A stretch of 64,000 nt of DNA from a virus, in the IMG/VR virus record IMGVR_UViG_3300017917_001172, positions 1-64,000 of that record, one strand, 5' to 3'. Below are positions 2,568 to 45,841 of this stretch, piece by piece. The notes beneath the pieces are model-generated. The model worked only from the letters and a program-made list of their open reading frames with translations. It did not search any database and was not told where the DNA came from. The first letter of the stretch is position 1. Every line of letters begins with the position of its first letter. A program made the position numbers and the translations under genes.

Positions 2568-2683
2568 GTACTCCTAGTTTCATATTTATTGCATAGGTTT
2601 TTCAGCCTGTCAACACATAAATAAAGTACCAGTCGCGATGCGCCAACATCCACTGGTTCTATACGCTAAAGGGAGCATACAGC

Positions 2684-6312: not shown

Positions 6313-9300
6313 TTAATAACCATTGGCTGTGTTGGTCAGCAAGCTCTTGCTAACGCTCTGCACACCAAACAATGTCTTAGCATCTGTTTCAGTGATACCA
6401 AAATTTGTTGCTAGCGTGGCTAACATGATTCTCTGTGCTAGGGCCACGACTACTTCTAACTGAATGTTAGTTGTGGCAAGATATTCTTTTGTTAAACCAG
6501 ACAGCTCTTCTGTATAGACTGTGTTTTGAAGACCTTCTATGCGCATGAGTTGGCTTATTATCTCTGTCTCGTTACCCAAGACTATTCCATCAGATGGAAC
6601 GTTCTCTTCGTCGAAATTCAATGCTAGGTCTAATCTATCGGTTTCATACAAAAACTCAATAGGATTGTTATTGTATTTTTCCACCATCATGTCAGACATG
6701 ATCACTTGTCCATCTAGCGTGAATAAGAGCTGCCTTATGCAATTCTGCATCAAAAGATCTATATCGGGTTTAAGAGCCTCTACGTTCTGCGAATATTTCT
6801 TTATCAGGTATTGATAATATGTTTCAACTTCTGAATTAACCTGGACATACAATTCTGCAGCTCTTTCAGCATTTTCTGCCCATATGCCTGTCCACGAAGT
6901 ATAATTCGTGTAGGTTGGACCAACACCGTCATTGGTTTCAAAGTTGCTTGAATTGATGCCTGCTGCTCTAGCTCTTGCTTTGTTTCTAGATAGCATGAGG
7001 GCTGCTTGTATCCTCTGTCCATACACATCATTAGTCGTTATCTTGCGTAGATAATCTGCTGCTCTGCCCGATCCAGTCTCGCGTGCAAGATTTTCCAGGC
7101 TGGACGCAAACTCCCATACCTGCATCTTCTCTGCCCTGCCGTCAAAATATCCAGTCCTGTAAACTACTGCTATCCTTGTGTTGAAGGCCGGTGCTGCCGG
7201 AAGGGTTATGGTGTTAGCGGTAGTGTTGACTGTATAATTGGTAGGTGCTTGCCACACACCGCTTATGAACACATCTAAGTCATCAGTGTCATCTATGTCA
7301 ACGCTGAGTGGCAGCACTTGAGTGGTACCATCTCCTATGAACTGATCTGTCTTCTTAGCTGGACCAAGTTGGAAACCATATTCCTTCCTTAGCTTGTGTT
7401 CTCTTGCCAGCAGCATGGCGCTCTCAGTGTGCAGCGAGTCAAGCTCTAACATGAGCGAAGTGACAGTAAGGTCGTTGTCACTTTCTATGGTGCTCTTGGC
7501 ATATTCAAGCTCATCTTCGATAGCATCAACTATGTCAGAAACTGCGTCATCTAAGGTATTATAGATTCCAAATGAATAGCCTGCTGTGGTAGGCGGTTGC
7601 ACAGTGTTTGGCGATGGGAATATACCTGGGACCGTGTAGACACCATTCAACGTATCTTCTAGCAGTGCCAGCAGATCAGCATAATCATCGAAATAAGTTG
7701 TGTCATTGTACAGTTCGGCTTGTATCTCTGCTATCCTAGGTATGGTCACTTCATGTATGTAACCAGCAGCAGTGCCTATGAAGTCAGCTACCGACAAGGA
7801 ACCATCTTCGGTGAAGAACCCAACTGGTGCATACTTCTCTCCTAGTTCACTCATCTGCCTGTAGTCGTATGTGGCAGGATCGCCAGTTATGAGGCTAGTG
7901 TCATACGGCACCTCGAAAGACACAAGCAAGTTGCCTAGATCAGACAGCGTGGTCATGTAACCTCTGCTGTTCACGAACAACATGCTTAGGAAAACAGCAA
8001 TGTCATTGAGCTTGTTGAAATAGTTGTAATCGTAGCTTTGTGGGAAGATCCATTGCGGATCAAGCAAGGAACCTAAGGTAGGAGGAGTCAATGTTGGATC
8101 TATTTCTAAAGCCTGGATTACCACATCTATCGCATCAGGATCGATCACTGATTCTAGGAATTCTGCTATCTGATTGTCGTAGATAGGGTCTGATAGATCA
8201 CGTATGTTTAGCTTTTCCTGCTGCATATATTGCAATAAGCCACAGCTAGCCCCTGCACCATTGATTATTATCTGCTGCGCTATCTGTCCAGCAGTACCGA
8301 TTCTCAACATGTCATTGAGGTCAGCTAATTTGCCCAAGGCTTGTAAATCTGATCCCAGTGCAATGACATTGTTGGTGATGGTACCAAAGCCACGGGTAAC
8401 ATATGCATCCCAATCATAGAACAAGCTAGAAAAGGCATTTATGTTATCCCTGCTGACGATGTCTCTGAGCACTACGTCGGGATCACCTAACCACTGGGCG
8501 GGCTGTATCGTGAGATCTATAGCACTTCTGACCTCGCCGATGGTGGGACCATCTAGTTCTATCCATGCGTTTTCGTCATTGGGCAAACCACTAACATTGG
8601 CCCAATTGTTTAGATCAAGGTCAGTCCAGAGATATCTTGCATTACCAAACACGTTGTTAACAGTGTTCTTCATGGTAAATTGAAGGCTGTTAGCATAGTT
8701 TTGTGCTGCCAGTGCTGCATTAAAGACGCTGATGAATCTTTCTAACTTAGGAGGACTGCTCTTGCTGAATATCTGATTAGCAGTAGAAGTTATCTTATCG
8801 GATACCTGTCCTTGGACGATACCGGTTGCTGATACTAGCTCAGGTGGCATGTTGCCTACCACGCTAGGCAAGATGCTGGCTCCCATTCCGGCTATCTTAT
8901 CTGACACTGCTTGGGTTATTGCAGAAGTGGGATCAGCGAGTGCAGCTGGTGACAGTGGCAATGCACCGCCTAGGAAGTTTTGGGCAGCACTAGTGATACC
9001 TGCCATGGCTGCTGCTAATGGACTGCCACCGGTGAGGACCCCAGCTAGACCTTGCACTATGCTAGGCACATCTAGGCCTAGGTTCTGGCTAAGACCTGCT
9101 GCTATCTGAGGTGCCGAGCTGTTGATGGGCTGGCACCCGCTTCCGCCGCCGCCGCCTGCGCAAGGATCTCCACCGCCGCCTGGTGAGCTGCCGCCAGCTT
9201 GATTGGCTGCTCCGGGTCCTGGGTTCTCTCCGCGTGTGGCACTGTTGACATAACCTTGATTGTTACCCCAGCGCCTCTGGCTCTGTCCTTTCCAATCAGC

Positions 9301-11057: not shown

Positions 11058-11305
11058 TGTAGCCTCTTTAATATGTCTTCTACCCTCATGGTTTTGAGGC
11101 TAGTCCATCCACCAGGAACTAACAGGTTGTCACCTGCAAATAGCACTGGCAGCGTCTTGTGCCCCTGTGAGATTAGCATTTCCCTAGCTTCTGAATCGTC
11201 AGTTATGTTTACTTCTTGGTATGCGATACCAAGCTTCTTTAGATGGTCTTTTGCCTGTGTGCAATAACCACAACCTGTCTTGGTGTAAATGGTCAATGTC
11301 TTCAT
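11054..11305 (-). CDS. glutaredoxin (NrdH/NrdC-like)
   Basis: CGYC active site, TLP, GG; near nrdB. Confidence 0.9.
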   Translation of the reverse strand: MKTLTIYTKTGCGYCTQAKDHLKKLGIAYQEVNITDDSEAREMLISQGHKTLPVLFAGDNLLVPGGWTSLKTMRVEDILKRLQ

Positions 11306-31820: not shown

Positions 31821-33269
31821 TCATATGTTTATCTTCTCAATTGAGAACGGGTAATTAGCTTCGCGATAAAATTGCTTGCGCTTGCCAAGATGCCTTTTCG
31901 AGAACTTGCAGGCTGATGTGATGTCCCAGATCTGAACAAAGTCCTTATCTTCCGCACGCCTAATTCCACGGCCGATAGACTGAATAACACGAACGAAAGA
32001 CTTGCCAGGCTCAACCAGCACAAGATTGAAGATGCGAGGTATATTAATGCCAACGGCAGCCACGCCATAAGTCGCAATGAGTACCTTATCATCGACCTCA
32101 GCCACTTCATCATATTCTGCCTTGCGATCACCAGCCTTGGTTGCACCTGATACGAATACTGCATCCTTGATCCTCGATTCCAGTTCCTTGCCGGTAGTTA
32201 TGCGATCCACTAGTATGAGAGTATTGCCTGAGGTTCGCACTGCCTCTGCGACGCCAGCCATCCAATCCAACCTATCTGCGTTGGTCACTAGGTGCTGCAT
32301 CTCGCTCTGGTAGTTGGCATAGGCTTGCGTTTCCTGCGTCTGCAGGACCTTGACGTGGCATTGCGCTAACACGCCCCTGTCTTGCAGTTCGCTAGCAGCC
32401 ACTCGATTGATCACATCGCCCAAGCTGCACTTGATAGAGATGAACTCGTACTGTTCCTTGGGGATGGTACCAGTCAATCCCCAACGTATCTGCACCTTGT
32501 GTAACACACCTGTCAGCAAGGTCTTGAGAGCATCAGCCTTGGCTTGATGCACCTCGTCCACGATCACCGCGACCACATCCTCGATGAAGCTGCCAATGTC
32601 AGCTTCGCCTTCCTTAGTCTTCTTGAGCATGTTATTCAAGCTCTGCCAGGTGCAGATGGTATGTGTGCGGCCTACCTCTTTCCTGTCACCAAAGTAGACG
32701 CCAACGTCTAGCTGCATGTTCTTGTAGTCGGCTTCGGTCTGCGTGACCAAGCTCTTGTTGGGAACGATGACCAGCGTCCTACCATACGGTTCCATCTTGT
32801 GGCTCAGCACTGCTGTCATCAGCGTCTTGCCTGCGCCTGTTGCGATCTCCTGCAAGGCCTGCGGGTTGTGCAAGAAGTTGTTGATGATCTCTACCTGATA
32901 GTCGCGCAGCATGATCGGCTGACCAGCAGCAGGATGACCTTTTGGCCACTTAACGTAGCTGTAGCTGTCCTCTGACACTTCCTCGAATTGGAAGTTCTGC
33001 CTAGCTTCACGCTGGTCTACTAGCTCAACGTGATAGTTGCGCTGATCTAGCTCTGCTAGGATCTCTGGCAGCAGATTGATGTAGGTACTGCCGCCCATCT
33101 GGAAGAATGAAACGCAACCATCCCAGCGCCCGAGACGGACAGCGGGCAGGTGCCTCGCATATGGAATCTCGAACTTGAACTTCTTGACCAGACGCTTGCG
33201 CATGTCAAGGTCGAGATCCTCAAACTTGCAATTGACCTCGTCCTTGATCACTAATCGGCAACTAGGCAT
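31821..33269 (-). CDS. uvsW: UvsW-like SF2 helicase
   Basis: LRDYQ, ATGAGKT, DEVH, GLTGT, QSIGR.IR. Confidence 0.9.
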   Translation of the reverse strand: MPSCRLVIKDEVNCKFEDLDLDMRKRLVKKFKFEIPYARHLPAVRLGRWDGCVSFFQMGGSTYINLLPEILAELDQRNYHVELVDQREARQNFQFEEVSEDSYSYVKWPKGHPAAGQPIMLRDYQVEIINNFLHNPQALQEIATGAGKTLMTAVLSHKMEPYGRTLVIVPNKSLVTQTEADYKNMQLDVGVYFGDRKEVGRTHTICTWQSLNNMLKKTKEGEADIGSFIEDVVAVIVDEVHQAKADALKTLLTGVLHKVQIRWGLTGTIPKEQYEFISIKCSLGDVINRVAASELQDRGVLAQCHVKVLQTQETQAYANYQSEMQHLVTNADRLDWMAGVAEAVRTSGNTLILVDRITTGKELESRIKDAVFVSGATKAGDRKAEYDEVAEVDDKVLIATYGVAAVGINIPRIFNLVLVEPGKSFVRVIQSIGRGIRRAEDKDFVQIWDITSACKFSKRHLGKRKQFYREANYPFSIEKINI

Positions 33270-34377
33270 CTACCCTCTCATCATCTGCAATCATATATAG
33301 CACCGCTAGATACTGTTGCGCTAGTTCTAAAGCGGCTTGATTGCCGATCAACACATCAGTGACCAACACCGATTGCTTGGCCTTTGTTGACACTTCTGTT
33401 GCGAAGCCTGGTTTGACCGTGATGTATTCCTTAGAGCAGGCATAGTAATCACTGGTCTTGGCCATGACCCTAGGCATGCTGTTGGTCCTGTACAAGAACA
33501 CGTAATTGAGATCATTGGCCGTGCGCATTAGCTCGTTAAACTTCTGCCAGACCATGTTGCTCTGGCCAGGGTATGAATCCTCGGCGGGGAACTGGGCTTC
33601 GAGCAGCATGCGCCGCGGATCCGTGACGCCAAAGTGTTCCAGCAGGGATCTCGTAACGCCCATGCCATGCTTGAAAGCTAGCAAGCCCATCTTGAGCACA
33701 TCGCCCTGTGGATCAAATCCATGTTGGTGCATGCTCTCGATCAAAGCATCCGTGCAGTTAAGCATCTCGAGACCGTTGCTGGTCAGATCAAGCAACGGGT
33801 AGACCTTGCTGTATAGCTCAAACGATCCTGCGATGTCCAATAGCTCTTTCAGCTTAGGATCTATCTTCCATTCAGTGCTGTTGAATATCTTCATCTTGAC
33901 CAGCTCTGCTATGTTGCATTCTAGCAGATCCAACGACCAATGCTTGGCAGTAGCATCCCACACCCAATGGCCAGGCATCTCACCAGAAGCTGTGCTGAGC
34001 TTGGCAATTACCTTTGGGTCATATGGGAACTTGATGTAGATCCTCTTGTCTTCTATCCAAGCCGAGTGGGTCCTGTCTACTTCTCGGATCGGCAGCGAGA
34101 GCGGAATGTCTTCGCTTTCGAGATAGCTAGGGTCGAGTCCAAGCTGTGTCCACTGGCGCTTGTATTTTTGGATTACCTTGACGGCTAACAGGACCTGCCT
34201 ATCAGTCAACCCAGTGTTATTCCTGATGCTCGTGCAGACGCTCTCAACAAACCTGATATCGTAGGTCGCTAGCTTGATGGGCTTGTTCCTGCGCCATGGG
34301 TCTTTGACAGTCTGTCCATTGATGTCGATCAAGCCGCCCATGAACAGCAACCAATCTTCTAGGAACTTCAGTGACAA
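33262..34377 (-). CDS. hypothetical protein (possible HARP-like domain)
   Basis: I.FPYD...I......W.WD...K.W pattern; directly upstream of uvsW. Confidence 0.55.
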   Translation of the reverse strand: MSLKFLEDWLLFMGGLIDINGQTVKDPWRRNKPIKLATYDIRFVESVCTSIRNNTGLTDRQVLLAVKVIQKYKRQWTQLGLDPSYLESEDIPLSLPIREVDRTHSAWIEDKRIYIKFPYDPKVIAKLSTASGEMPGHWVWDATAKHWSLDLLECNIAELVKMKIFNSTEWKIDPKLKELLDIAGSFELYSKVYPLLDLTSNGLEMLNCTDALIESMHQHGFDPQGDVLKMGLLAFKHGMGVTRSLLEHFGVTDPRRMLLEAQFPAEDSYPGQSNMVWQKFNELMRTANDLNYVFLYRTNSMPRVMAKTSDYYACSKEYITVKPGFATEVSTKAKQSVLVTDVLIGNQAALELAQQYLAVLYMIADDERVDA

Positions 34378-34405
34378 AATAATTCTCCCATATCAATCTG
34401 CAAAT

Positions 34406-34444
34406 AGAAAAGGGAGGATGAAGGCATTGCTGCCCTCATCCCCC
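34406..34444 (-). terminator. intrinsic terminator
   Basis: GGGGGATGAGGGCA-GCAA-TGCCTTCATCCTCC followed by CTTTTCT. Confidence 0.75.
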
Positions 34445-34486
34445 AAGTTGCCCCGCCCAAGCTAGGAGTCTCGGTGGGGAGTAGGA

Positions 34487-35494
34487 TCATGCATTCTTCA
34501 TGCATGTGTTCTCTGCGATAGCCTTCCAACGGTCCTCGCTCATGCGGCGCAGGTCAGCAAGCTTGATCGCCATGCGCAAGCTGACCTCGCGCAGCCTGGA
34601 AGACTTCTCAGTCATGAAGTCCAGGATCTCAGCTTCCTGCTCGTTGGTCATGCCGTAGGCTGGGAACAGCTGGCCCGTGCGAGCGATCTGCTTGATGCGC
34701 AGCAGCTTGTCGCGCATGGTATCGATCGTCAGGTCCAAGTAGTGGCAGCGTGACATCAGCGCAGCAAGGTGATCCTTGAGCTTGGTGCTCTTGACGCTGT
34801 CGAACTTGATGTTGGTGATGAAGATCACCGCGCCCTTGAAGTCGAACTTGTTGGGCACACCTTCGCGACGCAGCATGGCGCTGTCAGCGTTCCAGTGGAT
34901 GGTACGCTTCTTGGAACTATCCAACGCAGCCTTGAGCACGTTGAGCGACACGTCTTCCATCAAGATGCTGTCGCAGTCGTCGAACACCAACACGTTGCCT
35001 TCATCGCTGAACTCATGCAGCTTGCAGTAGAGTCCGATCGGCGTCATCGCGCCCTTGACCACTTCGTACTTGCGGCGTCGACCTGCGAGGTCGTCCAGTA
35101 AGCCGCTCTTCTGGAGCTCAGCTTCAACGCCAAAGCTCTTACCAACACCCGGCGGACCAACCACGATCATCGCACGGACGTCACCGTTAACGGTAGCAGC
35201 AGTCATCTCATCGAGGATGGCAAATCGCTCGCCAATACGCTCCATGACCTGCTCGTCCGTCTCAGCCTGCACTTCCTTGATAGGCGTCAATACCTGCATG
35301 TCTTCTCCGTCAACTTCGATATCATTCTCATCAACCAACACGCGGATGACGCCGCGCTCGGGCAAGATACCCGTAGCGTCAACAGTCACGTACCCACCCT
35401 TGGCACCCTCTTGGTAGCCCTTGACGAGCGGAAAGGTGCAATTGACAACCGGGGCATTCCGATACATGCCGTTCTTGATTGTGATGTACTGCAT
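34487..35494 (-). CDS. AAA+ family P-loop ATPase
   Basis: GPPGVGKS Walker A, VLVFDDCD Walker B, FITN, SR finger. Confidence 0.88.
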   Translation of the reverse strand: MQYITIKNGMYRNAPVVNCTFPLVKGYQEGAKGGYVTVDATGILPERGVIRVLVDENDIEVDGEDMQVLTPIKEVQAETDEQVMERIGERFAILDEMTAATVNGDVRAMIVVGPPGVGKSFGVEAELQKSGLLDDLAGRRRKYEVVKGAMTPIGLYCKLHEFSDEGNVLVFDDCDSILMEDVSLNVLKAALDSSKKRTIHWNADSAMLRREGVPNKFDFKGAVIFITNIKFDSVKSTKLKDHLAALMSRCHYLDLTIDTMRDKLLRIKQIARTGQLFPAYGMTNEQEAEILDFMTEKSSRLREVSLRMAIKLADLRRMSEDRWKAIAENTCMKNA

Positions 35495-35528
35495 TAGGAC
35501 CTCCTAGCTTCCTTGTTGCTGTCTACAC

Positions 35529-35556
35529 ATATTAGCACCTGCACTAGGTGCGTCAA
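35529..35556 (-). promoter_or_regulatory. sigma70-type early promoter
   Basis: TTGACG-N16-TAATAT. Confidence 0.75.
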
Positions 35557-35564
35557 CTGAAAAA

Positions 35565-35807
35565 TCAGTACTGACCCGAAAGAAGTGCTGCCTTGGCTTC
35601 GTTCAGCATCTTGGCCTTGGCGCGGAGCGGAGCGCCACGGAGCTCACCGTCGCAGCAAAGGTTCTCAGGGGAAAGATCACACTCGAGCGAGTCGAGAAGC
35701 TCGCGGGCGTCCTTGGGGGAAATGTTTGCGGGATCAATCTGCGGCTGGTTGAACCACATGCGCTGCATATTACGCTGGGCAATGTACTGGGTGAGGTACT
35801 TGTTCAT
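35565..35807 (-). CDS. hypothetical early protein
   Basis: AAGGAG RBS; LSPENL.CDGE motif. Confidence 0.75.
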   Translation of the reverse strand: MNKYLTQYIAQRNMQRMWFNQPQIDPANISPKDARELLDSLECDLSPENLCCDGELRGAPLRAKAKMLNEAKAALLSGQY

Positions 35808-35990: not shown

Positions 35991-36018
35991 ATAATATAGC
36001 CAAACACACAGGGGTCAA
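35991..36018 (-). promoter_or_regulatory. sigma70-type early promoter
   Basis: TTGACC-N16-TATTAT. Confidence 0.75.
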
Positions 36019-45137: not shown

Positions 45138-45841
45138 GCACACCGCATCTAGAAGCTAACCTAGGAGATTATGCCGAGACAGTGTTGCTGCCTGGTGATC
45201 CCCTGAGGGCGCAATGGGTAGCAGAAACTTATTTCAAGGACATCAAGTGTGTTAACAAAGTACGAAACATGCTTGGCTTCACTGGGCTTTACAATGGCAA
45301 GAAGATCAGCGTGCAAGGTTCTGGCATGGGACAACCTAGCCTAGGCATATACGTGAACGAGCTATACGATCGTTATAGAGTCAAGAACATCATAAGAATT
45401 GGTAGCTGCGGTGCTATCGATCAGGCTCTAACAGTAGGCAGCATAGTAGCTGCCATGACAGCTTGCACAGATTCAGGGTTGCCTACTAGCATAGCACAAG
45501 GTTGGCATTATAGCCCAGCAGCTAGCTATCATCTATTAGAGAACTATGTCAAGCAGCACAGGATGAGAGGTTTGCCTATAACAGTAGGCAGCATAGCAAG
45601 CACAGATAACTTCTATCAACCAAATTCGCTCTGGTGGAGGCCCTTGGCCGATCACGGCGTGATAGCAGTAGAGATGGAAACATACATGCTGTACACGCTA
45701 GCACACAGGCATAAGCGTCATGCACTTTCAATCAACACAGTCAGCGACAATGTTGTAACCAAGCAGCAGATGAGTAGCAATCAGAGGCAGACTGGACTAG
45801 ACAACATGGTGACTTTCCTGCTAGACAGCTTAGTGCTATGA
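45134..45841 (+). CDS. deoD: purine nucleoside phosphorylase
   Basis: TPHL.A, LPGDPLRA, VRNMLGFTG, GMG.PS, RIGSCGA, VEME, TVSD. Confidence 0.93.
   Translation: MSTPHLEANLGDYAETVLLPGDPLRAQWVAETYFKDIKCVNKVRNMLGFTGLYNGKKISVQGSGMGQPSLGIYVNELYDRYRVKNIIRIGSCGAIDQALTVGSIVAAMTACTDSGLPTSIAQGWHYSPAASYHLLENYVKQHRMRGLPITVGSIASTDNFYQPNSLWWRPLADHGVIAVEMETYMLYTLAHRHKRHALSINTVSDNVVTKQQMSSNQRQTGLDNMVTFLLDSLVL

Follow-up and report, generated by a model that had tools for sequence, protein, structure and literature searches.

A 3′ Untranslated Element Complementary to the Shine-Dalgarno Region of Its Own Gene in NrdC.10-like ATPase Loci of Uncultured T4-like Phages

Results

We analyzed a 64,000-nucleotide (nt) stretch of viral DNA, the window, which comprises positions 1 to 64,000 of IMG/VR record IMGVR_UViG_3300017917_001172; the whole contig is 78,530 bp and its estimated completeness is 22%. 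Our subject is an AAA+ ATPase gene on the minus strand and a short element in its 3′ untranslated region (3′ UTR) that is complementary to the same gene's Shine-Dalgarno (SD) region. The coding sequence (34487..35494(-)) specifies a NrdC.10-like protein of 335 residues that was assigned by a match to the phrog_1250 profile. Upstream of it a promoter scan identified an early promoter of the sigma-70 type (35529..35556(-); TTGACG, a 16-nt spacer and TAATAT, with TG preceding the -10 box), from which the transcript is predicted to start at approximately position 35522, so that the leader would measure about 28 nt. The minus-strand leader reads ...caaggAAGCTAGGAGgtcctaATG, with the ATG at 35494-35492, and its 10-mer AAGCUAGGAG (35501..35510(-)), the candidate 5′ pairing partner, contains the SD core GGAG (35504-35501).

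The stop codon, TGA (34489-34487), is followed by a 3′ UTR of about 85 nt. Its first hairpin, which we refer to as hairpin 1 or the presenting hairpin (34451..34479(-); CCCCACCGAG-ACTCCTAG-CTTGGGCGGGG; -13.2 kcal/mol in the local fold), carries the candidate 3′ pairing partner, the anti-SD element CUCCUAGCUU (34459..34468(-)), in its loop and 3′ arm. In that fold seven of the ten bases of the anti-SD, CTCCTAGCTT (34468-34459), were unpaired and the last three (CUU) lay in the 3′ arm. An intrinsic terminator follows (34403..34444(-)), with a 14-bp stem (34444-34413, 8 G-C pairs), a GCAA loop and a T-rich tail. A preliminary description of this DNA had placed the anti-SD mostly within a hairpin loop ahead of an intrinsic terminator, and the fold agrees with that placement. 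The predicted promoter and terminator thus flank both pairing partners, the former lying before the leader and the latter directly after the anti-SD element, and the ATPase gene is predicted to be a self-contained early unit with its own promoter, leader, coding sequence, 3′-UTR hairpin and terminator.

The label of AAA ATPase given earlier to the gene product was borne out by sequence motifs, profile and fold alike. The match to phrog_1250, a family that includes T4 NrdC.10, covered residues 1-333 (E = 4.5e-87), and the motifs invariant among the homologues were a Walker A motif, GPPGVGKS, and a Walker B motif, FDDCD (VFDDCD in the window protein). Searches with tblastn found matches to the ATPase in 1307 phage records, and nrdC.10 was the annotation under the match in Acj9, KVP40 and JS98. 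No Pfam family reached threshold, with AAA_16 and AAA appearing only below it. An AlphaFold model built from 26 homologues (predicted local distance difference test score, pLDDT, of 83.5) had a beta domain at its N terminus and, after it, an AAA+ core and lid, and Foldseek matched it to MoxR-type NorQ and CbbQ, RuvB, RFC, Orc/Cdc6 and other AAA+ chains with E values of ~1e-6 to 1e-7.

The leader word AAGCTAGGAG (35501-35510, minus strand) had a single exact reverse complement in the 78.5-kb contig, at 34459-34468; counted on both strands, the exact 10-mer occurred twice in the window, once per strand, at the leader and in the 3′ UTR, and also twice in the whole contig. The perfect 10-nt complement to the SD in the 3′-UTR hairpin, as previously claimed, was therefore correct in sequence and position, as was its proposed extension to 12 of 13 positions with one bulge, for which RNAduplex returned nine pairs, a bulged G and three further pairs. 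The naive estimate of 4^-10 overstates how surprising such a match is, because AAGCTAG-type words are over-represented in this genome: AAGCTAGG occurred 15 times in the window versus 2.2 expected and AAGCTAG 54 times in the contig versus 10 expected. We therefore compared leaders with the 3′ flanks of different genes on the same contig (102 crude gene calls). Under this within-contig null the probability of a complement of at least 10 nt was ~0.4% per gene pair, corresponding to ~0.4 genes expected per 102. Complements of at least 10 nt were present in four of the crude gene calls, and only in the ATPase gene did the complement lie on the SD. The match is no more than suggestive when this genome is considered by itself, and its significance would come from related loci. 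A weak depletion of CTCCT from the sense strand (34 copies versus 52 on the antisense strand of the contig) was not used as evidence.

The over-represented words were themselves examined. Copies of AAGCTAGG lay mostly on the minus strand (e.g., at 11183, 17464, 18564, 21502, 23052, 24584, 30987 and 33000), AAGCTAG and CAAGCTAG belonged to the most frequent words of the contig, and CTAG was not avoided (924 copies). Since the flanks of the AAGCTAGG copies share nothing, their excess looks like codon or dipeptide bias and not a site.

Comparison with related loci was the check that the preliminary description had itself proposed. At least 596 relatives of the ATPase were found in IMG/VR, and the best 80 of these (56-76% identity) were taken with their flanks; individual loci are denoted by L numbers below. 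In nearly all, a -10-like box preceded the ATG by about 30 nt (a spacing as in the window), together with an SD, the gene and, where a 3′ UTR was present, a terminator. Most of the 3′ UTRs held a stretch complementary to their own SD and its flanks, and the flanks varied by clade, with clade-specific paired flanks that included GCATTC, TTCA, AGAGA, TAAC..TG and TAACTA. In L001 and L003 the leader word CTAGGAG(A) was matched by (T)CTCCTAG in the 3′ UTR. Leader AGGAGCTA was matched by TAGCTCCT in L007-L025, L045 and L051, leader AGGAGCATTC by GAATGCTCCT in L022 and L031, leader TAGGAGTTCA by TGAACTCCTA in L039, and leader GGAGAGAGA by TCTCTCTCC in L041-L050. The other pairs were TAACGGAGTA with TACTCCGTTA (L060, L075), TAACGGAGTG with CACTCCGTTA (L061, L062), AAGGAGCAA with TTGCTCCTT (L071) and GGAGTAACTA with TAGTTACTCC (L073).

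These correspondences were specific to each locus's own leader. When the leaders were grouped into 33 clusters, one locus was taken from each and leaders were permuted against 3′ UTRs, the mean longest complement was 6.97 nt for own pairs versus 5.81 nt for cross pairs, and the observed sum was reached in none of 20000 permutations; the duplex energies of own and cross pairs differed likewise (p = 4e-4 by permutation, 33 clusters). An exact complement of at least 8 nt to the own leader was present in 23 of 49 ATPase homologues with a 3′ UTR versus 11 of 185 control genes, the latter being other genes on the relatives' contigs with a 3′ gap of at least 40 nt (Mann-Whitney p = 1.6e-7), and none of those 11 control complements lay on the SD. 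Under a bulge-tolerant definition, in which the SD core had to be fully paired within a duplex of -11 kcal/mol or better, own-SD pairing was found in 32 of 47 unique homologues with a 3′ UTR versus 13 of 119 neighboring genes (Fisher p = 7e-13).

Changes between close relatives were compensatory. The proteins of L060 and L061 are 97.4% identical, and where one leader reads GAGTA and the other GAGTG, their 3′ UTRs read TACTC and CACTC, respectively, at the matching position. Across L071, L072 and L073 one pair passes from C-G through U.G to U-A, and the G.U intermediate, in L072, would be meaningful only at the RNA level. The complementarity in homologous loci that had been anticipated was thus found, with paired flanks that covary, and the match to the own SD and its flanks is evidently maintained by natural selection across a large family of uncultured T4-like phages.

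The anti-SD was presented in one of three ways. In the first layout (the window, L001, L003, L022, L031, L039, L041-L050 and L046-L057), it took up the loop's 3′ side in a stable hairpin, next to the 3′ arm. In the second (L007-L025, L045 and L051), it occupied a single-stranded linker between two hairpins, and in the third (L060-L076 and L071-L073), it started at or overlapped the stop codon. Between clades the stems of the first layout were wholly different in sequence and pairing was always kept. An alignment of ten sequences sharing one architecture had double changes at all ten stem pairs; 90% of stem cells were paired versus 68.6% in shuffles, none of 500 shuffles reached the observed value, and sliding the partner by one column lowered stem pairing to 40-45%. 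The invariant portion of the first layout was GCUCCU, at the 3′ end of the loop. Because the stem covaries completely while GCUCCU stays invariant, we regard this as evidently a structured RNA element that serves to present an anti-SD. An alignment of all hairpin types together gave no consensus structure, the loop sizes being too different, and Rfam covariance models found no match over 34300-35700 at E values up to 1.

Three relatives had a hairpin loop with two seeds (L035:3488-3535, L036:3488-3535 and L039:3497-3540). One seed is directed against the SD (AACTCCTA), and the second, an adjacent 8-11 nt, against the leader word CAACATAGCA(A), which begins about 10 nt after the -10 box and hence is probably near the 5′ end of the mRNA. 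The seeds are in crossed order relative to the leader, so that no single continuous helix could form from both.

We also asked whether the extended SD words were a property of a class of genes. Within the 6-kb related loci, there was no copy of the extended SD word beyond the anti-SD, with the exception of one extra copy in each of L007 and L023, and AGGAGCTA occurred only 3-5 times in contigs of 62-152 kb, approximately the frequency of a reversed control word. A class-wide "private SD tag" was therefore not supported, as the extended words are not common to neighboring genes, and on these counts the element is apparently gene-specific and not a phage-wide tag. In the window, the shorter word CTAGGAG precedes three other start codons, at ~2570-2577(-), ~7839-7845(-) and 45161-45167(+), where it would form putative ribosome-binding sites; that at 2577 extends to 8 nt, CTAGGAGT. 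The hairpin loop ACUCCUAG might act on these three sites as secondary targets.

For the window mRNA, the 10-bp SD/anti-SD duplex had a calculated energy of -15.1 kcal/mol and the extended duplex -21.9 kcal/mol; the leader paired to the 16S rRNA tail motif gave -10.9 kcal/mol, weaker than both. Cofolding of leader and 3′ UTR gave -49.1 kcal/mol versus -42.4 kcal/mol for the summed separate folds. Structure in the first 120 nt of the mRNA was not significant (z = 0.14), and the SD would therefore be largely free on the nascent RNA.

The ATPase locus had no blastn match in a collection of cultured phages, its cultured relatives being detectable at the protein level only (the closest being 41% identical). 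Inspection of the locus revealed no 5′-3′ element in Aeromonas phage 60AhydR15PP, Atu_ph07, Vibrio phage D524 or Acj9. The remaining matches were too weak to claim. KVP40 had a 5′-3′ match of just 6 nt, and in Klebsiella phage JY1 a 10-nt A-rich match lay inside the next gene and was rejected. In Pseudomonas phage PA5oct (L082) a stretch of 8 nt (AGTAGCAT) located between SD and ATG matched the 3′ arm of the terminator, and in Roseobacter phage RDJL Phi 2 (L087) there was a 9-nt match (ACCAGCGAC) three bases upstream of GGAG; these two miss the SD core and could have arisen by chance or reflect a less strict form of the same tendency. The element is thus, as far as these loci indicate, a feature of an uncultured clade. 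A separate observation concerned the terminator hairpin of T4 nrdC.10 (L081:14290-14330), whose loop word AGAAATAGA is common to L041, L043, L044 and L050 while the stems differ, a sharing that is unexpected at 30-35% protein identity.

Downstream of the ATPase unit in the window lies an open reading frame (ORF) of 371 codons without a family match (33262..34377(-)). The space between it and the terminator does not obviously accommodate a promoter, and the ORF may depend on terminator read-through. In L011 and L055 the next ORF adjoins the ATPase stop codon (a gap of 1 nt), and in L006 it overlaps the end of the ATPase gene by 43 nt. The first peptide of the next ORF in these three loci is similar to that of the 371-residue product, as judged by eye only, and some relatives have a similar downstream ORF (again by eye) adjoining the ATPase stop codon, in which case they lack the 3′ element. 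Immediately upstream of the ATPase unit is an ORF of 80 codons (35565-35807(-)), also without a family match, which is preceded by a second strong promoter of the sigma-70 type (35991-36018(-); TTGACC, a 16-nt spacer and TATTAT).

Discussion

The comparative data support a functional pairing, predicted at the RNA level, between the 3′-UTR hairpin of the ATPase transcript and that transcript's own ribosome-binding site. It is the comparative test that decides this, because the same arrangement recurs with differing sequences in the relatives. As to what the pairing does, we consider it probable that it acts as a built-in brake, in which pairing of the 5′ and 3′ UTRs, of the kind described for icaR of Staphylococcus aureus, would occlude the SD either in cis or via a 3′ fragment. 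During transcription the SD would be free and the message translatable. Once the 3′ UTR had been made, its loop would nucleate on the SD region and hairpin 1 would then open, giving a duplex of 10-12 bp, stronger than the pairing of the SD with 16S rRNA, which would block further loading of 30S subunits and probably hasten decay of the mRNA. The pairing might occur within one molecule or between molecules, for instance by means of a processed 3′ fragment of ~85 nt resembling the small RNAs (sRNAs) that derive from 3′ UTRs. The net effect would be to cap the ATPase output per transcript. A burst of co-transcriptional translation followed by self-closure is the simplest model, because the element is transcribed last and the leader would be open until then. 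The suggestion in the preliminary description, that translation is shut off as a timer or as negative feedback, is plausible by analogy with two experimental precedents, icaR (PMC3868564) and the long-range anti-SD effects seen in Bacillus subtilis (PMC12697547).

A stronger form of the built-in brake, which we regard as speculative and rather unlikely, is a dedicated "self-closing" mRNA switch that evolved for one gene. Translation would take place only during the ~20-30 s of transcription, after which the ribosome site would be locked and the transcript discarded, so that the dose of the ATPase would be set by promoter firing alone. In some clades a second seed would be directed against the 5′-terminal nucleotides of the mRNA (L035, L036 and L039), and in others the overlap with the stop codon could allow terminating ribosomes to hold the switch open. 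If true, this would be the first natural, phylogenetically proven family of 3′-UTR-encoded translational timers in DNA phages.

Several points weigh against the built-in brake, or against the evidence for it. The loci are related to each other, so that the p-values given above overstate independence; the compensatory changes between close relatives are an argument that is independent of those p-values. The element was absent in about one-third of the homologues with a 3′ UTR (e.g., L004, L030, L052 and L066), a further 13 unique loci were without any 3′ UTR, and T4 nrdC.10 has its own early promoter and terminator without an anti-SD. In view of all three, the element is dispensable for the gene. 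In the minimum-energy fold of the 1119-nt window mRNA, nt 13-22 were paired with the 3′ element, and own pairing appeared in the corresponding folds of 15 of 24 representative relatives, although the window pairing was lost when the assumed transcript ends were shifted slightly and was also absent from the centroid structure. We give such long-range predictions little weight because the full-length fold depends on the assumed ends. The transcript ends, the pairing in vivo and the effect on translation are all inferred from sequence. Repression, too, is assumed by analogy, and the same sequences would also be compatible with protection or storage of the message.

Protection or storage is the main rival, albeit one that we consider improbable. 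The pairing would shield the GGAG from a RegB-type endoribonuclease, or the 5′ end from RNase E, and a silent early pool of message would come to be translated at a later time, e.g., following 3′ trimming as in the case of hok mRNA. RegB of T4 cleaves early mRNAs at the GGAG of their SD sites, a cut against which secondary structure gives protection (PMC3014915), and the ATPase gene has both a GGAG SD and an early-type promoter. A study of hbs likewise describes a 5′/3′-UTR interaction that governs ribonuclease action on hbs mRNA (PMC5737220). A search for RegB (PF10715) found none on the contig, which represents ~22% of a genome; as none was found in control genomes either, the result is uninformative. 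Evidence against this rival is that the nascent leader lacks significant structure, so that, in contrast to hok, translation would not be delayed until the 3′ end has been made, and that no activating processing signal was visible.

Action in trans is less probable still. The 3′ UTR, in which a loop seed precedes a Rho-independent, U-tailed terminator, has the form of an sRNA comprising hairpin 1 and the terminator, and such an sRNA could regulate a set of mRNAs, of phage or host, that have the SD word in common, with CTAGGAG preceding the three other start codons described above; the match to the own leader would then be incidental. The longest match was always to the own leader, however, and it is the own leader that the compensatory changes track. 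Nor were the extended words placed at neighboring genes, apart from the single extra copies in L007 and L023, and AGGAGCTA was about as frequent as the reversed control word.

Coincidence, in which an SD and a hairpin containing CUCC reach 10 nt of complementarity because AAGCTAG-type words are common in the genome, would be in keeping with the word counts and with the chance expectation of ~0.4 genes per 100, but it is very hard to reconcile with an arrangement that recurs in at least nine sequence types across the relatives, with own pairs that exceeded cross pairs in all 20000 permutations and with the strong excess over neighboring genes. An inverted repeat acting at the DNA level, in recombination, cassette mobility or as paired protein-binding sites, appears equally remote: T4-type phages do shuffle early genes by means of composite terminator-promoter-SD cassettes (PMC2839356, PMC4122927) and the ATPase gene has such a promoter-to-terminator layout, yet the recombination of these PeSL cassettes uses direct repeats between cassettes and SD complementarity is mentioned in neither report, and the repeats here are just 7-11 nt, always centered on the SD core, lie in the loop or single-stranded linker of covarying RNA hairpins and pass through G.U intermediates, such as that of L072, which would be sensible only at the RNA level.

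Among known systems, the built-in brake most resembles icaR, in whose mRNA pairing of a 3′-UTR UCCCC motif with the SD keeps the initiation complex from forming and gives rise to an RNase III site (PMC3868564). In both, the 3′ UTR carries an anti-SD motif that complements the message's own SD region, and the sequences analyzed here do not separate action in cis from action in trans, a question that the icaR authors also faced (PMC3868564). The systems differ in that icaR is a bacterial regulator gene whose 3′ UTR is long and pairs over ~40 nt, whereas the phage AAA+ ATPase gene has a 3′ UTR of ~85 nt and 7-12 bp of pairing; here the anti-SD directly precedes the terminator and lies in the loop of a hairpin, within a linker or right at the stop codon. 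In addition, the pairing predicted here is supported by covariation across many lineages, whereas that of icaR has experimental backing.

A screen of 8-mers in Bacillus subtilis showed that anti-SD-like 8-mers far downstream can engage the ribosome-binding site in pairing, hasten decay and prevent initiation, and that such pyrimidine-rich words have effects at distances of hundreds of nucleotides, genes being in general depleted of them (PMC12697547). The same physical effect is invoked here; unlike the general depletion, the anti-SD of the ATPase loci appears to be positively maintained and tuned to its own leader.

The preliminary description had likened the arrangement to the fold-back of type I toxin mRNAs. 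As in hok/Sok (PMC3868564), the 5′ and 3′ ends of one mRNA would pair, and in hok this pairing keeps the mRNA untranslated. The likeness holds as a resemblance only. The hok system involves a small toxin, an antisense RNA partner, metastable 5′ hairpins and activation by 3′ trimming, unlike the present locus, which encodes a 335-residue AAA+ ATPase, has a leader without significant structure and gave no Rfam match.

Two further comparisons concern the parts of the unit. An early sigma-70 promoter, SD, gene and stem-loop terminator form one unit in the PeSL cassettes of T4-type phages too; these have been described as recombination seams and promoter/terminator units, and complementarity to the SD is not part of that description (PMC2839356, PMC4122927). 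In 3′-UTR-derived, Hfq-dependent sRNAs such as SdhX (PMC6393394), a seed is followed by the mRNA's own Rho-independent terminator, as here, and release by processing would be possible. Known sRNAs of this type act in trans on other mRNAs (PMC6393394), whereas the best target here is the ribosome-binding site of the parent mRNA itself.

Our text searches of the literature found no description of this element. A 3′ UTR that pairs with its own SD is a kind already known from icaR, whose 5′-3′ pairing was termed a "singular example" when it was described (PMC3868564), and the present loci are the first phage case found in the literature searched, one notable for the breadth of its covariation. Beyond icaR we found few further cases (hbs being one; PMC5737220), and none that we saw had deep comparative support. 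The family would be a natural counter-example to the purging of anti-SD words, since here such a word appears to have been kept, tuned to one leader, through many compensatory changes. At ~1.1 kb and with natural compensatory variants, the locus may also offer a compact test system for 5′-3′ pairing versus coupled transcription and translation. For the phages themselves, these findings single out the widespread NrdC.10-like ATPase as a protein whose dose may be under tight phage control.

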